64,000 bases of DNA from Kiritimatiellia bacterium (lineage in GTDB: Bacteria > Verrucomicrobiota > Kiritimatiellia > RFP12 > UBA1067): assembly GCA_050949565.1 (NCBI GenBank), contig JBMNFY010000007.1, positions 96,001-160,000 on the forward strand, read 5' to 3'. Each line of letters starts with the position of its first letter. Position 1 is the stretch's first letter. The position numbers were made by a program, and so were the translations under genes. Shown piece after piece: positions 2,194 through 19,981 of this stretch. The notes under the pieces were generated by a model that did not search any database, was not told the DNA's origin, and worked only from the letters and a program-made list of their open reading frames with translations.

Positions 2194-3120
2194 TCACGCG
2201 TCGCGGATTGTGGTTTCAAACTTCTTCAAATGCTGTTCTGCCGTTTTGAGATTCGGTATGCCGGTTCTGCCGCCGAGCTGCGTGCATTTCAGCGCGGCGA
2301 CGACGGTCGCGAAGCGCATGCAGGACTCCCAAGGGCGCCCCTGCGCAACGGCGAATGTGAAAGCGCCGTGATAGGTGTCGCCCGCGCCGGTGGTGTCGAC
2401 CTCAGCAGGCACCTCGTACTGCGGACAACTGAACACCTGCTTCCCGTCAAAGCCGATCGAACCGCGCTTGCCGAGGGTGATCCCCGCGAAGCGGCAACCG
2501 GGCACAAACAGTTTGCGCACCGCAGCGGTCGGCGAGCGCGATCCCGTAAACCGGGCGGCGAAAGGCTGTGAGGCGATGATGATATCGCTCAACGCCAACA
2601 GCTCTTCGATGCCTGGGACGAGCGTTCCGGCGTCGATAGAAACACACACGCCATGTTTGCGGGCGGTTTTGGCCGCAGCGAGCGCGGCTTGCATCTGGTG
2701 TCCGTCAAGATGCAGCAGGTCGCTGGCGCGGATCCGCTCGCGGCAGAACTCGCGTGCCGAGAGAGGACGGGCTGTGCCGCGCGTCCAGGCGATGCTGCGC
2801 TTGCCGCTTGGCTGATCGATCCAGCAAAAGCCAGCCGGTGACTCGGCGTTTTTGCGGACTTTGATGCCTGCGGTGTCGACGCCCTCATCCGCGATGCCGC
2901 GCACGATCTGCTCGCCGCGCTCGTCGTCTCCGACCACCCCGCAAAACGCAGTGTCCGCGCCTAGACGGGCAGCGGCGACGATGGCGGTGGCGGCCGGACC
3001 GCCACCCTGTATGAGGCTCTCGACGATCTCGACTTTGTCGTCATGCGGGATATGCGGCAGGACACAGAGGTAGTCCATGCCGCAATAGCCGATACCGATG
3101 AGCTTGGGGGTTCGCTTCAT
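2194..3120 (-). CDS. PfkB/ribokinase-family sugar kinase
   Basis: GGGPAATA and DTTGAGDTYHGAF PfkB signatures. Confidence 0.9.
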   Translation of the reverse strand: MKRTPKLIGIGYCGMDYLCVLPHIPHDDKVEIVESLIQGGGPAATAIVAAARLGADTAFCGVVGDDERGEQIVRGIADEGVDTAGIKVRKNAESPAGFCWIDQPSGKRSIAWTRGTARPLSAREFCRERIRASDLLHLDGHQMQAALAAAKTARKHGVCVSIDAGTLVPGIEELLALSDIIIASQPFAARFTGSRSPTAAVRKLFVPGCRFAGITLGKRGSIGFDGKQVFSCPQYEVPAEVDTTGAGDTYHGAFTFAVAQGRPWESCMRFATVVAALKCTQLGGRTGIPNLKTAEQHLKKFETTIRDA

Positions 3121-4459: not shown

Positions 4460-4511
4460 GGGAGGGACGAGCGTCTGCTCGTCCTCGGGCAAGCAGACGC
4501 TTGCCCCTCCC
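4460..4511 (-). repeat. REP-like double-hairpin element; empty copy of the group II intron target
   Basis: Reverse complement GGGAGGGGCAAGCGTCTGCTTGCCCGAGGACGAGCAGACGCTCGTCCCTCCC matches 11889-11938 plus 12635-12636 with one mismatch. Confidence 0.9.
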
Positions 4512-10178: not shown

Positions 10179-11137
10179 GGCTGTGTATGCCAGCAGCGCG
10201 AACGGTGGCTGTCGGCGTCGTCGGTTTCAGGGGGTTGTTCGGCGTGGCAACGCGCGTCGGCCTGTGCGCAGCGCGGCGCAAAGGCACAACCGGCGGGCCA
10301 GGCGTCCGGCGAGGGCACGGTGCCGGGAATATCCTGCAGCGGAGCGTTGCGCGGTGCGTCAAGCATCGGCACCGCGGCGAGCAGGCCGCGCGTGTAGGGG
10401 TGGCGCGGGTTCGACAGCACGTCGGTCACGGCACCGGACTCTACCACCTGCCCCGCATACATCACATACACGCGCGTCATGCGCCCGGCGACCAATCCGA
10501 GGTTGTGGGTGATCAGCAACACCGCCATGCCGTCGGCGTCAGCCAGTGTGTCAATCAGGTCGAGCACCTGCTGTTGGGTTGTGACGTCAAGAGCGGTGGT
10601 CGGTTCGTCTGCAACCAACAGCTTGGGACGCGCGGCTAACGCCATGGCGAGCATGACGCGCTGCTGCTGGCCGCCGCTGAGTTCGCACGGGAAAGCGCGG
10701 GCCGCGCGGGCGGGATCTGGGAGTCCAGTCCGCGTGAGCAGTTCAACGCAGGCGTCGCGGTGCGCGGCGCGCGGCAAGTCAGGCAGGCATTCCGCGATTT
10801 GATCTTGTACGCGCATCACCGGGTTGAGGCTTGCAGAGGGGTCTTGAAAGACATACGCGATACCGCGACCGCGTACGCGGGTCAGGGCGTCGGGACTGAG
10901 CGCCAGAGTGTCCGTGCCGTCAAACAGCACACGTCCCTGCAGGCGGGCGCGATCCGTGGGCGAGAGCCGCGTGAGCGACAGGGCGGTGAGACTTTTGCCG
11001 CAACCGCTTTCACCGACTACAGCGACGCGCTCGCCGGCCTGGACGGTCAGCGAGACATCACGCACAGGCGTGGTCAGCATTCCGTCACGTCGGAACGTGA
11101 CGGAGAGGTGATCAACTTGGAGTAGGGGATGGGGCAT
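10166..11137 (-). CDS. Oligopeptide/dipeptide ABC transporter ATP-binding protein (OppD/DppD-like)
   Basis: GESGCGKS, LSGGQQQR, DEPTTALD, HPYT and C-terminal GCAFAPRC. Confidence 0.92.
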   Translation of the reverse strand: MPHPLLQVDHLSVTFRRDGMLTTPVRDVSLTVQAGERVAVVGESGCGKSLTALSLTRLSPTDRARLQGRVLFDGTDTLALSPDALTRVRGRGIAYVFQDPSASLNPVMRVQDQIAECLPDLPRAAHRDACVELLTRTGLPDPARAARAFPCELSGGQQQRVMLAMALAARPKLLVADEPTTALDVTTQQQVLDLIDTLADADGMAVLLITHNLGLVAGRMTRVYVMYAGQVVESGAVTDVLSNPRHPYTRGLLAAVPMLDAPRNAPLQDIPGTVPSPDAWPAGCAFAPRCAQADARCHAEQPPETDDADSHRSRCWHTQPCHS

Positions 11138-11164: not shown

Positions 11165-11401
11165 TTAACTCTCAACTTTCAACTCTTTTTCGTCCCCGTC
11201 ATCTTTTGTTCGCCGCCGATTTCTGGTTGTTTTGAGCCTCAAAAAATAATCGATTAACCCCAGAAGAACGATACACGTCCACAACACGACATGCCACTTC
11301 AAACGGCTGGAAGCTTGGGAGTACATGCGATAGTACGAGCTAACCGTGTTGAACAGCGCTATGGCCACAGCAATGATCCAAATGATTGTTCGCATTTTCA
11401 T
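11165..11401 (-). CDS. Small two-TM hypothetical protein, AT-richer
   Basis: 78-aa ORF with two hydrophobic segments and a basic tail. Confidence 0.55.
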   Translation of the reverse strand: MKMRTIIWIIAVAIALFNTVSSYYRMYSQASSRLKWHVVLWTCIVLLGLIDYFLRLKTTRNRRRTKDDGDEKELKVES

Positions 11402-11416
11402 GGGAAACTCGTAGAT

Positions 11417-11548
11417 TCAATTTTCACCGACTACAGCGACACGCTCGCCGGCCTGGACGGTCAGCGAGACATCACGCACGGGCGTGGTCAGCATTCCGTC
11501 ACGCTGGAACGTGACGGAGAGGCGATCAACTTGGAGCGTGAGTGCCAT
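11417..11548 (-). pseudogene. Truncated duplicate of the OppD-like gene 5' end
   Basis: Encodes MALTLQVDRLSVTFQRDGMLTTPVRDVSLTVQAGERVAVVGEN*; about 113 bp nearly identical to ~11009-11122. Confidence 0.85.
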
Positions 11549-11938
11549 GATTTACCTGCCTTTCGCCGACGCGGTATACTCCCAGATTTCGAACATGGCG
11601 ACATGGTATCTTTTGCGTTACATAAATCAACAACTTTTTTATTCCGCGTGGTAATCGGTTGGTGACAGGGGGGTGATGCTTGGTTTTTTTATCACACGAA
11701 GGCACAAAGGGCACGAAGGTTTTTTGGGGGCATGGCCCGGGTTTGTTTAACCACGGAATACACTGAACACACGGAAAGGCACAGCTCTGCTGTTTCACGC
11801 GAAGACGCGAAGATTGGAGGGCGAGTGGTCCCCACGAGCCGCCTTCCACTGTGCGGAAGGATGGTTTCAGGGTTTATTGCGGAGCGCCGGGAGGGGCAAG
11901 CGTCTGCTTGCCCGCGGACGAGCAGACGCTCGTCCCTC

Positions 11939-12634
11939 GTGCGCCCAGCATGGGCATGTACTAGTCAACTGAAAGGAGTTGATCGCAAAAGCAGTGACAG
12001 CAAGCGTAGCGAAACGGCAAGGCCGCGACCGCAAGGGAGTGAGCTGAAGGAAGCCGATAGCAAAGACACGGCCGCAGGAACACGAACGGGCAGTGAGGCA
12101 TGGTCCGGGCGATGAGTGTGCGAGGAAACACGAAATCCGACAGTCACCGAAAGACGCACTGTGTAGAGCCCGGCGGCACGGGTCGAAAGTACATGCACCT
12201 TACCTGGGGAGGCCCCGTGCGTGAGAGCGGACGGGGAGTCAGCAGAGGCCGTAGTAGTGAAGAGGCCCGCCGAAAGGCGGGAGGAGCGAAGGGCCGAAGG
12301 ACAACGAAAGTGCGGTCAGCCGACCGCCTTGGAAGCATGGCGAGGAGGGATGTGAAACAAAGGGGCGCGACAACTACGGTAGCCACCTCTGCGGCGCGGC
12401 GGGTCGGAGCCGGTGGATTCCGGTTCTGTCCAGTCGCACGCGGCCTGAGTCAGGCTTTCAGCGGCATGGAGGTGATGGATGATGCACAATGAAGCGAACA
12501 TGGCGTTGCCACGCCGTGGGACTTCGCGGGGGCGCGTCAGCGACCCCCGCCGTGTCCAACCGCCGTATGCGGAAAACCGCACGTACGGTGGTGTGGGAGG
12601 GGCACGGGGCGCAATCCCCGTGCCCCCACCCGAT
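11939..12634 (+). mobile_element. ORF-less group IIC intron (696 nt)
   Basis: 5' GTGCGCCCAGCATGGG; conserved CCTTACCTGGGGAGG, AGTCAGCAGAGGCCGTAGTAG and GAAGGGCCGAA blocks; short domain V ACCGCCGTATGCGGAAAACCGCACGTACGGTGGT with a CGC triad (~12559-12592); domain VI hairpin ending ACCCGAT; sits 3 nt after a hairpin; no RT ORF. Confidence 0.92.
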
Positions 12635-12746
12635 CCTGGCGGCGGTCACGCCGCCACCCCGTAAAAAAATCTCTGCGCCTCTGTGTCTGCGTTAAAAAAC
12701 TTTCAACGCTCAACTCTCATTTCGGCACTCACAAGTCAGGCGAAAG

Positions 12747-12878
12747 ATTTGGAGTGCGGCGGCAAGCGGTATTCCGCGCGACGCCGCTTTTTGAGCAGTG
12801 TTTTTCCGCGCGTGGCGCGGAGGGAAAGCGGTGCCGCGACCCGCGCACAGCGCGGCTCTTGTCACCGCACTCCAAATT
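12747..12878. repeat. REP/MITE-like element (TTGGAGTGCGG family), second copy
   Basis: Terminal IR TTTGGAGTGCGG...CCGCACTCCAAA; inverted relative to 9214-9340. Confidence 0.85.
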
Positions 12879-12969
12879 TTCCGCCGCGCCATGCGCGGCA
12901 CAACCTTTTGCGCCCGCGCAGCGGAAAATCATGTCAATCCTGTCAATCGTGTCAAAAAAAACATCCTGC

Positions 12970-14722: not shown

Positions 14723-16171
14723 AAGGACTTTCCCCAAAAAATCGGGGGCAATTATATCTAAGTCCTTGAAAACAAAGGGGATGCGTCTCTGACGGGCGTG
14801 CCTGAAAGTGAAAAAGTGGTTTTCCTCCGCCGGTTCTGCCAAAATGGCGGTTCAACCAAAAACCAAAAACCGGAAAGGAAAACCGACATGAATCATAGCG
14901 CAACGGCGTTCAAAGCGCGAGAGCAACTCAAGAATTTTTTGGGGGAACTTTCCCCCCGGTTTTCCAAGCCGCTCGGCAAGTTCGTGGGCGACATGGTCTA
15001 CGGGATACAGGCGTCGCAGGACGTGAAGCTCAGCCGGATCGCCCGCGCGCTCGACGAGCCGATATCGATGAAGAAACTGGAGGACAGGCTGAGCCGGATG
15101 CTCGGGAGCGAGGGCATCGAGCAGGGGATTTCCGACGCTGTCGCCCGTCTGGGCTCGCGTCACGTCCATCAGGACACGCTGATCGTCATCGACCCGACCG
15201 ACATCCGTAAGCTGTACGCGAAGAAGATGGAATATCTCGCCCGCGTCCGGGACGGGAGCACGGGGGAGATCGGCAACGGATACAGCGCCTGCCTGGCGGT
15301 CGCCTGCGAGAGCGGCGGCCGCCGGATCACGCCGTTGCACATGCGGCTGTGGTCGAGCGAGGCGGAGGGCTTCATCAGCCAGAACGACGAGGTGCTCGGC
15401 GTCATCGACCAGATCAGCTCCCGCGCGAAGAAGCGCGGCATCTACGTCATCGACCGCGGAGGCGACGGAGACTGGCTGTTCGACGGCCTGGACCGGCGCA
15501 AACTGGACTACATCGTGCGCCTCGTGGGCAACCGCAACCTGCTCCACGGCCGGCGGACCGCGCTGGCCGAAGAACTGGCGGCATCCTGCCCCATGAAGCA
15601 CATCGAGATCGTCACGAGGGAGACGGGGGACGGGGTGAAAAGCTATAAGCTGGAGTTCGGCGCCATGACCGTCGCCCTGCCGCAGAGGCCCGACAAGCCC
15701 CTGCGCATGGTCGTGGTGAAGGGGTTCGGCGAGCGGCCGATGCTCCTGCTGACCACGCTGGCCGGGACGACGTCGCGCAAGTCCCTGTGGCAGGTCGTCG
15801 AGGGCTATCTGACGCGGTGGCGCGTCGAGGACGCGATCCGCTTCGTCAAGCAGAGCTACAACCTCGAGGACATCCGGGTCCTGACGTACCGGCGCCTGAA
15901 AAACATGGTCGCTCTGCTGCTGGCCGTCATCTACTTCAACTGCGTCTGGCTGGCCGGACGGCTGCGCTGCGAGATCCTGACGACCAACATCACCCACGCC
16001 GCCAAGCGCATCTACGGCGTGGCCGAGTTCCTCCACTACGCCGTCGCCGACGGCCTCGGGAGGCTCTTCACGCGCCACGGGAAATGGTACGGCTACAAGC
16101 CGCCAGACCCCGAATCAAACCCGCTCGGACTGGTCTTTCTGGAATGACCAGATTTTTTGGGGAAACTCCTT
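14723..16171 (+). mobile_element. IS4-superfamily insertion sequence (1449 bp)
   Basis: IRs AAGGA(C/G)TTTCCCCAAAAAATC; 9-bp TSD TTACGTTGC (14714-14722 and 16172-16180). Confidence 0.9.
14888..16147 (+). CDS. IS4-like DDE transposase
   Basis: IDPTD, IDRGGD and YLTRWRVEDAIRFVKQ (YREK-type motif). Confidence 0.9.
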   Translation: MNHSATAFKAREQLKNFLGELSPRFSKPLGKFVGDMVYGIQASQDVKLSRIARALDEPISMKKLEDRLSRMLGSEGIEQGISDAVARLGSRHVHQDTLIVIDPTDIRKLYAKKMEYLARVRDGSTGEIGNGYSACLAVACESGGRRITPLHMRLWSSEAEGFISQNDEVLGVIDQISSRAKKRGIYVIDRGGDGDWLFDGLDRRKLDYIVRLVGNRNLLHGRRTALAEELAASCPMKHIEIVTRETGDGVKSYKLEFGAMTVALPQRPDKPLRMVVVKGFGERPMLLLTTLAGTTSRKSLWQVVEGYLTRWRVEDAIRFVKQSYNLEDIRVLTYRRLKNMVALLLAVIYFNCVWLAGRLRCEILTTNITHAAKRIYGVAEFLHYAVADGLGRLFTRHGKWYGYKPPDPESNPLGLVFLE

Positions 16172-19904: not shown

Positions 19905-19981
19905 GGGGGATTAGCTCAGTTGGTTAGAGCACTTGCTTGACATGCAAGGGGTCGGTGGTTCGAGTCCACTATCTCCCACCA
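19905..19981 (+). tRNA. tRNA-Val(GAC)
   Basis: Acceptor stem GGGGGAT/ATCTCCC, anticodon arm CTTGC-TTGACAT-GCAAG, GGTTCGAGTCC T arm, encoded CCA. Confidence 0.97.

Follow-up and report, generated by a model that had tools for sequence, protein, structure and literature searches.

The ORF-less group II intron and its site

The window is the whole stretch of DNA that was analyzed, 64,000 nt of a draft genome (G000; 4.66 Mb in 21 contigs, 92% complete). It contains an intergenic cluster of repeats in which one copy of a 52-nt palindromic repeat is split by 696 nt. We found that the inserted 696 nt are, beyond chance, a group II intron. The intron contains no open reading frame (ORF) resembling a reverse transcriptase (RT). 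Both genes flanking the cluster are on the opposite strand, and the locus has no conserved neighbour. For annotation, the intron accounts for an intergenic stretch of 0.7 kb that would otherwise appear "empty". The features are:

4460-4511, minus strand: empty copy of the 52-nt repeat, uninterrupted, one mismatch (sequence comparison; repeat search)
11889-11938, plus strand: 5' exon, the first 50 nt of the 52-nt palindromic repeat (sequence; repeat-family search; IBS1-EBS1 pairing)
11939-12634, plus strand: ORF-less group IIC intron, 696 nt, 5' GUGCG ... GAU 3' (Rfam matches; no RT ORF; fold)
11952-12199, plus strand: domain I body, closing helix 11952-11962 / 12188-12199 (consensus fold; includes the Rfam D1-D4 match)
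12120-12127, plus strand: EBS1 loop GCGAGGAA, stem 12116-12119 / 12128-12131 (fold; stem covariation UA/CG)
12213-12295, plus strand: domain II hairpin (12213-12236, loop UGAGAG) and domain III (12247-12295) (consensus fold)
12296-12555, plus strand: domain IV, ~260 nt, with a conserved 5' part, RT ORF remnant and closing hairpin 12524-12549 (alignment of relatives; fold)
12468-12503, plus strand: RT start remnant and deletion junction (alignment with siblings; BLAST pieces)
12504-12545, plus strand: remnant of the last ~14 codons of the RT (...PWDFA...), out of frame with the start (alignment with the 3' ends of the G244 and G250 ORFs)
12560-12591, plus strand: domain V, 32 nt, with CGC triad 12561-12563, 2-nt bulge and AAAA loop (Rfam; alignment with relatives)
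12595-12634, plus strand: domain VI, bulged A 12628, 3' end GAU 12632-12634 (sequence; Rfam; fold)
12635-12636, plus strand: start of the 3' exon, CC, the last 2 nt of the repeat (sequence)

Joining the exons (11889-11938 plus CC at 12635-12636) gives GGGAGGGGCAAGCGTCTGCTTGCCCGCGGACGAGCAGACGCTCGTCCCTC|CC. The uninterrupted copy on the minus strand differs from the split copy by C/A at repeat position 27. The split repeat contains hairpin 1 (11894-11913, loop GTCT) and hairpin 2 (11916-11935, GGACGAGC-AGAC-GCTCGTCC). The intron begins 3 nt (CTC) 3' of hairpin 2. No run of T follows this hairpin; the 3' exon reads CCTGGCGGCGG.... An earlier first-pass annotation of this DNA had described the same arrangement (a repeat restored by removing 11939-12634, an uninterrupted minus-strand copy with one mismatch, and insertion 3 nt after a hairpin without a T-tract), and the sequence confirms it.

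The 52-nt repeat is abundant, as the annotation had proposed. There are 104 matches in the 4.66-Mb genome (at least 45 nt at 90% identity or more) and another 100 partial matches. The 23-mer made up of the hairpin and CTC occurs 105 times with at most one mismatch; the backwards control occurs 0 times. Each unit can fold, as read from its sequence, as two 8-bp hairpins or as one hairpin of 26 positions with 2 mismatches. The repeats also occur as tandem arrays and mosaics. Like REPs, the repeat is a short palindromic unit in many extragenic copies. A second hallmark of REPs, association with a REP-type transposase, was not found. There are nine matches to Y1_Tnp in the genome (five above the cut-off alone and a sixth together with neighbours in frame), and no copy of the repeat lies within 1.5 kb of the eight places checked. 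The REP identity suggested by the annotation thus lacks the transposase link, and we use "REP-like" as a descriptive term only.

The ribozyme is complete and belongs to a lineage with RT-encoding members

Two Rfam models match the intron: group-II-D1D4-3 (RF02001) at 12025-12197 (95.8 bits, E 3.4e-18) and the D5/D6 model RF00029 at 12558-12634 (46.3 bits; cut-off 40). We did not find in the literature the intron class that the D1D4-3 model represents. The single-sequence fold has the six-domain layout (z -4.66). In a consensus fold of seven copies, 27 of the 100 pairs have compensatory changes on both sides. One such pair, 12218/12231 in the stem of domain II, reads U-A in this intron, C-G in the copies of genome G028 and G-C in G244. 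The ribozyme is small (domains I-III ~355 nt, domain I ~260 nt, domains V-VI 77 nt), and domain IV is also short, as first reported. The hallmarks of group II introns are present: the CGC triad, the 2-nt bulge, a bulged branch A (12628) located 7 nt from the 3' end of the intron, GUGYG/AY ends and a covarying fold of domains I-III.

Introns in other genomes of the order are 82-86% identical to this one and encode a 424-aa RT (P0001). The copies in G244 and G250 are 1905 nt long, with the RT/maturase in domain IV. The best solved relative of P0001 is the GsI-IIC RT (6ar1), which aligns over the full length (E 3.7e-110). The next comparisons were with the 427-aa chain 7uim_D (E 3.9e-85), a group II intron reverse transcriptase/maturase that we take to be the protein of a IIC intron RNP, with LtrA of class IIA (E 2.9e-33) and with 6me0 (E 2.5e-28). 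P0001 scores 348 bits on TIGR04416. Its Pfam domains are limited to RVT_1 and GIIM; an endonuclease domain is absent. A CGC triad, in place of AGC, marks IIC introns, and the 696-nt intron has CGC. Based on these results we assign the intron to class C (IIC), as the annotation had, with the class read from the best matches of the siblings' RTs.

One deletion removed the RT gene

Domain IV retains both ends of the lost ORF. The ribosome-binding site of the RT is still present (GGAGG, 12468-12472), followed by the first six codons, ATGCACAATGAA (MHNEAN), from the ATG at 12482, homologous to MHNEEN... in the sibling. Aligned by BLAST with an RT-encoding sibling, the intron falls into two pieces (q1-565 and q562-696) that overlap by 4 nt, and positions up to 565 are 86% identical. 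The overlap corresponds to a 4-nt microhomology, ATGG (12500-12503), at the junction. These alignments show that a single deletion of ~1.2 kb at ATGG produced the ORF-less form and spared the ribosome-binding site, both ends of the ORF and the whole ribozyme.

The first-pass annotation had noted a ribosome-binding site and a five-codon mini-ORF here (GGAGGTG ATG GAT GAT GCA CAA TGA, 12468-12492). The letters are as described. We dropped the mini-ORF as an independent gene: it is a frame artefact, with 12475-12492 in another frame than the RT start remnant.

The intron's target: GC-rich hairpins followed by CTC or CTA

EBS1 GAGG (12122-12125) pairs with IBS1 CCTC (11935-11938) at the end of the 5' exon. 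Across the lineage, all three EBS1-IBS1 pairs that were scored form in 32 of 36 copies (2000 shuffles: mean 15.3, maximum 24). Position -1 covaries with EBS1, G with C and, in G075 and G290, U with A; this covariation rests on few pairing types common to kin, mainly GAG/CTC and UAG/CTA.

All 16 distinct 5' junctions of the lineage follow a hairpin by 3-9 nt and end in CTC, CTA or CCA. Insertion just 3' of a stem-loop next to a short IBS1 is the IIC pattern. Of the 11 different 3' junctions in the order's genomes, 10 have C as the first base of the 3' exon, and the one in G044 has T. We take this C as a putative IBS3, and C12635 is likely to be IBS3 in the window.

The annotation had named the repeat family as the target. 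Hairpins of the repeat host 6 of the 16 5' junctions, one of which is probably the window's own site. The other 10 follow GC-rich hairpins unrelated to the 52-nt repeat. What defines the target is a GC-rich hairpin with CTC or CTA after it, and the repeat is not the sole target. With ~105 sites of hairpin plus CTC in the genome, the repeat is a frequent landing pad, though not the only one. Besides terminators and attC sites, IIC introns can thus use abundant palindromic repeats that have no T tract as landing pads.

The same deletion junction is found at several sites

We found the identical deletion junction in two ORF-less copies in a related genome (G028a and G028b), which are 94-95% identical to the window's intron and whose insertion sites have unrelated unique flanks. 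The junction is also present in 11 metagenome stretches that represent six places, with one further stretch, L145, whose contig opens with an incomplete copy that cannot be placed. Of the six places, three were already known, two are new 5' junctions and the last is a 5'-truncated copy, encountered four times and truncated at intron position 333.

Junction sites in metagenomes are subject to misassembly through repeats. L151 and L153 have 1.1 kb of 3' flank in common and different 5' flanks, which could reflect recombination or chimeric assembly through the repeat. This conflict weakens two of the six sites. Their unique 3' flank maps to C17:1352372-1353525 in the window's genome, where the repeat cluster is missing and the locus reads as neither occupied nor cleanly empty. 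Counted together, one ORF-deletion junction is found in the window's copy, G028a, G028b, L151, L153 and the truncated copy, and its presence at several sites is compatible with the intron having moved once its RT was gone.

Another genome, G063, has six contig ends that break off within the intron's 5' end and three in its 3' end, which we read as proliferation of the intron in the genus. The flank of one G063 junction (L056) is the one seen at the window's site. The G075 copy contains an insert of ~1.5 kb that we considered as a possible RT gene and rejected; it holds fragments of a DruA-family gene and an IS66 transposase on the opposite strand.

No cognate RT was found in the assemblies with ORF-less copies

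A search of the G000 assembly detected no second copy of the intron; the other copies and the RT-encoding parent type sought by the annotation are in relatives' genomes. Protein searches found no cognate RT in G000, and there was no nucleotide trace of the cognate ORF. The sole RVT_1/GIIM match is a 5'-truncated RT of 242 aa that is 31-34% identical to P0001 and belongs to another lineage. The triad is AGC in the only other intron of this genome (C8:45141-~46040, minus strand), whose truncated RT abuts a DDE transposase-like ORF. G028, a 90% complete draft with two ORF-less copies, also has no match to P0001. With no related intact RT in either draft, the step in trans is inferred from other systems. 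The mobilization in trans proposed by the annotation is consistent with the RT-encoding relatives and the multi-site junction, and lacks an RT in these two assemblies.

Domain V and sequencing-run data

In domain V, both members of the pair U12566-A12585 differ from those of relatives, which have G-C. The first position is U in every copy that bears the junction. The pair is a mismatched U x C at three places and U-A in G000, L151, L153 and L145. We read this as a compensatory change that restored pairing after the ORF was lost, which would indicate selection on domain V.

At least 85% of the sampled words of the stretch were found in each of 14 DNA runs from 13 studies. A DNA-run contig of 759 nt (X4) spans 11909-12667 without a difference, and two metagenome contigs (L143, L147) are 100% identical to the locus. 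Some DNA-run joints skip 699-740 nt and were considered as an empty allele. These were rejected; their sides are 23-30 nt long with extra letters, and they derive from other copies of the repeat.

Contigs from three RNA-library runs run unspliced over the 5' exon-intron boundary. We saw no spliced exon joint among these contigs, which cannot show absence; contigs are silent on expression level, RNA ends and absence of splicing. One RNA-library contig (X15, 1641 nt) matches 11899-12500 at ~94% and continues for ~1 kb unlike the stretch. The similarity breaks at the deletion junction, as would be expected of an ORF-containing relative.

Proposed history and alternatives

We think it very probable that the intron is a deletion derivative of a IIC intron that spread with an RT supplied in trans and is now a stranded single copy. 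The parent resembled the 1905-nt introns of G244 and G250. Loss of ~1.2 kb at ATGG stripped the ORF, leaving the ribosome-binding site, codons 1-6, about the last 14 codons and the ribozyme. The shortened RNA would then be bound by the RT of a full-length relative in the same cell, and would enter single-stranded DNA by reverse splicing, immediately 3' of a GC-rich hairpin. Guidance would come from the 3-4-bp EBS1-IBS1 pairing (GAGG/CCTC), probably together with the single IBS3 base C. The integrated RNA would finally be copied into DNA. Most likely, the copy in the window is stranded: a ribozyme that appears intact and is immobile unless an RT comes in. The stranded state follows from the single copy and from the lack of a cognate RT in the assembly.

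Our results might also indicate that the ORF-less RNA is maintained as a stand-alone ribozyme, one that cuts ssDNA or RNA at CCTC in the manner of HYER or that integrates without an RT. Neither assembly with full ORF-less copies has a cognate RT, pairing in domain V was apparently restored after the ORF was lost (the restored form is at three places or more), domain II has a double change, and DNA-cutting ORF-less IIC introns have been published (10.1101/2024.08.31.610620, in its available text, citing Liu et al. 2024). Against this, the intron is present once, among intergenic repeats and without a conserved neighbour, the remnants of the RT start and end point to recent descent from a retroelement, and the absence of an RT rests on draft assemblies. 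We consider a stand-alone ribozyme quite unlikely. A broader reading, which we also view as unlikely, is that an ORF-less IIC lineage persists with its core under selection and reaches new hairpins without a cognate RT. The RNA would then integrate by host enzymes alone or act, to its own or the cell's benefit, as a ribozyme that is guided by hairpins and cuts DNA at the abundant repeat.

It is very unlikely that the ORF-less copies spread as DNA, by gene conversion of full-length copies or by carriage with repeats that duplicate or recombine. Every 5' junction is base-exact at GUGYG and fits EBS1, unique and unrelated sequence flanks the G028 sites, and the copy truncated at 333 bears the junction, as incomplete copying of RNA would yield. 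These observations outweigh the common 3' and different 5' flanks of L151 and L153, the tandem arrays and mosaics of the repeat, and the flank that L056 shares with the window's site, all of which would be expected of spread as DNA. An inert fossil whose ribozyme no longer folds or splices would be compatible with a single copy without an RT and with the lack of a visible spliced product. We find it barely credible, given that all catalytic landmarks are intact, the fold has a z of -4.66, a compensatory change appears to restore domain V, and the locus is 100% identical in L143 and L147 and without difference in X4.

The trans-mobilized deletion derivative that we favor would be a natural case of a retroelement shedding its protein gene, with one deletion, both ORF stumps visible, later spread and catalytic repair. 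The lineage also provides matched parts for bench tests of mobilization in trans or of protein-free activity: a sibling that encodes the RT, a derivative that has lost the ORF and a 23-nt target.

Comparison with known systems

GsI-IIC of Geobacillus stearothermophilus and the IIC introns of Eubacterium rectale and Roseburia intestinalis likewise have a small ribozyme and insert after a stem-loop followed by a 3-4-nt IBS1. The sibling RT aligns with the GsI-IIC RT over its full length and, like it, has no endonuclease domain. Unlike these IIC introns, the present one has no ORF, and its hairpins have no T tract, are not attC sites and in many cases come from a genome-wide palindromic repeat. 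The insertion sites of previously described IIC introns are terminator motifs and, more rarely, attC sites, according to the part of PMC4424553 that was available.

The TeI3 introns of Thermosynechococcus elongatus, of type IIB/CL, offer another ORF-less comparison. As described in the sections consulted of Mohr et al. 2010 (PMC2882425), the ORF-less TeI3 introns have one common deletion breakpoint, and among known IEPs that of EcI5 is the nearest to theirs. Both TeI3 and the present intron retain N- and C-terminal remnants of the ORF, with one breakpoint in all ORF-less copies. In contrast to the present intron, TeI3 homes by long EBS/IBS pairings, and the same account gives six potentially active IEP genes in its genome, whereas here there is no cognate RT in the assembly.

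HYER (Liu et al. 2024, as cited in the preprint above) is likewise an ORF-less IIC intron of ~600-700 nt with a short recognition sequence. The present copy differs in that the start and the end of its former RT ORF are still visible, and in having RT-encoding siblings at 82-86% identity. It shares with the definition of HYER the part "ORF-less IIC".

Palindromic extragenic repeats have served as landing pads before. In the table of Tobes and Pareja 2006 (PMC1525189), two of nine copies of a Pseudomonas putida group II intron are associated with REPs, and most of the elements listed are insertion sequences. In the present case, unlike those, recognition of a hairpin plus IBS1 explains the link to the repeat. 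Our literature search for other group II introns in REPs returned this table as the only relevant report; its additional files may list more. The IIC-attC introns of integrons (S.ma.I2, in the available text of PMC4424553) are likewise of IIC lineage and use a repeated imperfect hairpin motif. The present target differs in that it is not attC, has no integron context and includes unrelated hairpins. The element is a well-preserved further case of a known intron type, and not a new kind of element.

An ORF-less intron inside a palindromic repeat

We found that the 696-nt insertion in the window is a group II intron without an ORF and that it splits a palindromic repeat, as the first-pass annotation had proposed. 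The insertion matched two Rfam models, D1-D4 at 12025-12197 (RF02001, 95.8 bits, E 3.4e-18) and D5/D6 at 12558-12634 (RF00029, 46.3 bits against a cut-off of 40). None of the 21 ORFs of at least 20 aa overlapping 11850-12700 was RT-like. Without the insertion, the flanks form one 52-nt palindromic unit, and sequence comparison identified an empty copy of this unit in the window.

11939-12634, + strand: group II intron insertion, 696 nt, beginning GUGCG and ending GAU
4460-4511, - strand: uninterrupted copy of the 52-nt unit, one mismatch

A 2.1-kb intergenic cluster of repeats surrounds the intron. The cluster is flanked on one side by an ABC-transporter ATPase gene and on the other by a 439-aa ORF that has no Pfam family and that we take to be transposase-like. 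Both flanking genes are on the opposite strand, and no host transcript obviously reads through the intron. Just 3' of the intron, an inverted repeat of ~12 nt (tttggagtgcgg ... ccgcactccaaa) surrounds ~100 nt (12745-12880) and is probably another small repeat element. Two ORFs antisense to the ATPase gene (11291-11665 and 10760-11125, +) have a stretch in common (..TDYSD.LAGLDGQRDITH.RGQHSVT.ERDGE.INLE), which suggests, from sequence, that part of the 5' region of that gene was duplicated in the intergenic space. A 449-aa DDE_Tnp_1 transposase ORF (14798-16147, +) is 2 kb from the intron, and a tRNA gene is at 19905-19978 (+; 68.7 bits, Rfam tRNA model).

RT-encoding siblings and intron class

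At E <= 1e-5, 20 of the 319 genomes of the order matched the intron, including the window's own genome (G000, of which the window is C7:96001-160000), where it is a single copy; in many of the 20, the match is confined to domain V of other introns. The search scored two candidates per genome, and five genomes were then rescored in full. G028, a genome of another genus, contains two full ORF-less copies (G028a and G028b) with 94-95% identity to the window intron. G244 and G250, each outside the family of G000, contain 1905-nt copies. Intron positions 1-565 and 562-696 match these at 78-86%, and the ~1.2 kb between the two pieces is an intact 424-aa ORF.

This sibling ORF (P0001) scored 348 bits on TIGR04416, and Pfam matched it with RVT_1 and GIIM only. 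Its top solved relative was the GsI-IIC RT (6ar1, E 3.7e-110, residues 10-414 on 2-408), followed by 7uim_D and then by 5hhl and 5hhj, both "retron-type reverse transcriptase" chains; we take these three to be IIC RTs. The values against LtrA and 6me0 were 2.9e-33 and 2.5e-28. Besides the sibling RT, the small ribozyme, the target pattern and the CGC triad, which is linked to IIC introns, fit class C. The nearest named RT records bear titles of Lentisphaerae, Kiritimatiellae and Verrucomicrobiota MAGs.

Loss of the RT ORF

The ORF-less copies retain GGAGG followed by ATGCACAATGAAGCGAAC, homologous to MHNEEN of the sibling, and on the far side ...CCGTGGGACTTCGCG, the sibling's ...PWDFA directly before the stop. 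The mini-ORF of the first-pass annotation (12475-12492) is merely another frame across this remnant of the RT start. At the deletion junction, the two BLAST pieces overlap in a microhomology, ATGG (12500-12503). The junction is identical in G000, G028a and G028b.

Elsewhere in the lineage the ORF was lost by other routes. G075 represents an independent one: most of the ORF has gone, and fragments of a DruA-family ORF (263 aa) and of an IS66 transposase take its place on the opposite strand (L015, G075:C35, 1036-3036, -). The ORF has internal deletions in G257; G290 has a 3' truncation, and G062, G044 and G300 have 3' fragments. A 973-aa ORF in G062 (L016, G062:C89, 25-2946, +), presumably RHS/YD-repeat-like, runs into the 3' intron fragment (2917-3037), and its final ~16 codons (..KRYGFIIPWDFAEANV) correspond to the end of the lost RT ORF.

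Probable spread of the ORF-less form and state of the ribozyme

A junction-specific pattern was found in 11 metagenome stretches. The window's own locus (100% identity) accounts for two of them, the G028 sites for two more, and a single 5'-truncated copy, beginning at position 333, for four; another (L145) is a partial copy at the start of a contig. The remaining two are L151, after the hairpin GCGGGCG-AGGA-CGCCCGC and with the same flank as one contig end of G063 (a genome of the same genus as G000), and L153, after the repeat's other hairpin in reverse orientation. One deletion junction would then be present at about six places. L151 and L153 have a common 3' flank and different 5' flanks, a pattern that could reflect recombination or chimeric assembly through the repeat. 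In G063, six contig ends fall in the intron's first 28-52 nt and another three in its 3' end, indicating that the intron is multicopy there. A degraded remnant of the cognate RT gene also persists in G063: 190 nt at 82% identity that include a stop codon.

The consensus fold of seven copies has 100 pairs, 27 with compensatory changes, and the single-sequence fold has six domains (z -4.66). The domain V pair 12566/12585 is G-C in relatives, and position 12566 is U in all junction-bearing copies. The pair is U x C in both G028 copies and in the truncated one, and U-A in G000 and the loci L145, L151 and L153. The U-A pair is a repair that postdates ORF loss, and further spread came after it. The domain II pair 12218/12231 is U-A in G000 and C-G in G028. 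In public sequencing runs, the exact locus is present in digester and sludge metagenomes, and contigs from RNA libraries read across the 5' junction in unspliced form. The contigs of these runs included no spliced joint, though contigs alone cannot settle splicing.

The missing RT

The first-pass annotation had invoked an RT encoded elsewhere. We found no candidate able to act in trans in the G000 assembly (draft, 92% complete), nor any remnant of the cognate ORF at the nucleotide level. Its sole RVT_1/GIIM match is a 5'-truncated RT of 242 aa on contig C8, lacking the N-terminal half and 31-34% identical to P0001. Likewise, there was no match to P0001 in G028 (draft, 90% complete). The C8 RT belongs to an intron remnant of another lineage than the window intron.

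G000:C8:45141-~46040 (L005 4142-5041), - strand: second group II intron remnant, D5/D6 51.7 bits, AGC triad

A 275-aa ORF adjoining the truncated RT (L005 4920-5747) reads, by eye, like the C-terminal part of the 449-aa DDE_Tnp_1 protein, and the C8 intron was probably cut by the same insertion sequence.

The intron recognises a hairpin followed by CTC or CTA

The EBS1 loop carries a GAGG that pairs with the exon end CCTC.

12120-12127: EBS1 loop GCGAGGAA, on a covarying 4-bp stem

Table. EBS1 and exon ends in copies from the order
Copies; EBS1; exon end
G000, G028a, G028b; GAGG; CCTC
G075; UAGG; CCTA
G290; UGGG; TCCA
G244, G250; GAGA; CCTC (3 pairs)

We examined this pairing in 36 loci: five copies from the order and the 31 usable among 80 RT-relative loci (35 had no 5'-end motif; the others had no loop match or too short a flank). 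All three positions paired in 32/36 and four in 17/36. In 2000 shuffles the mean was 15.3 and the maximum 24, compared to the 32 observed; the signal is carried mainly by two pairing types common to kin.

In the close lineage, each of the 16 distinct 5' junctions is 3-9 nt 3' of a GC-rich hairpin. Only six are within the repeat's hairpins, one of them probably the window's site again, and the repeat family is thus not the specific target that had been suggested. These results indicate that the intron recognises a hairpin plus CTC or CTA, and that the repeat is often a landing site because it is abundant. In contigs from two RNA libraries (X15, X18), the intron is behind a variant hairpin with changes at window positions 11918, 11920, 11931 and 11933. 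In two stem pairs both bases differ (A-T to G-C, G-C to A-T), which preserves the stem with a different sequence.

The 4.66-Mb G000 assembly contains 104 matches to the 52-nt unit (at least 45 nt at >=90% identity) and 100 partial ones. As read from its sequence, the unit can fold into two 8-bp hairpins or one long imperfect hairpin. It is a module within larger mosaic repeats and tandem arrays. We counted targets with a 23-mer (second hairpin + CTC, at most one mismatch); the 23-mer read backwards gave 0 in each of the five genomes.

Table. Counts of the 23-mer
G000 (own genome); 105
G063 (same genus); 27
G028 (other genus); 20
G244 (other family); 50
G250 (other family); 0

The repeat had been called REP-like. 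It is a multicopy palindrome, but no copy was within 1.5 kb of a Y1_Tnp match at the eight places checked (G000 has nine such matches), so the term is descriptive only. The G000 arrays are a mosaic repeat system. Halves or whole units recur in them at fixed spacings of ~105, 181, 623 and 289 nt (for example C20:28731-30017, C17:978657-979775, C15:27012-28932, C1:40630-41259 and C6:54202-55092), with short modules that include ggcggcg-gtca-cgccgcc, gtttcaggtttcattgcggagc and acgctcaacg...

Comparison with known group II introns

In the relevant passages of PMC4424553, the IIC specificities named are homing sites, terminator motifs and attC sites only. The window intron follows the same hairpin logic, on hairpins other than terminators and attC sites. 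Insertion at REPs is described for a P. putida group II intron (2/9 copies; PMC1525189). ORF-less IIC introns as such are already known, the HYER ribozymes being published examples (Liu et al. 2024, as cited in 10.1101/2024.08.31.610620), and the window intron is a well-documented further case. As PMC4424553 describes them, ORF-less bacterial group II introns are rare and usually found beside a related IEP. The point of note here is that no cognate RT was found in the draft genomes carrying the ORF-less intron (G000 and G028). For one deletion followed by spread with an RT in trans, the best parallel is the T. elongatus introns, which are of another class (PMC2882425).
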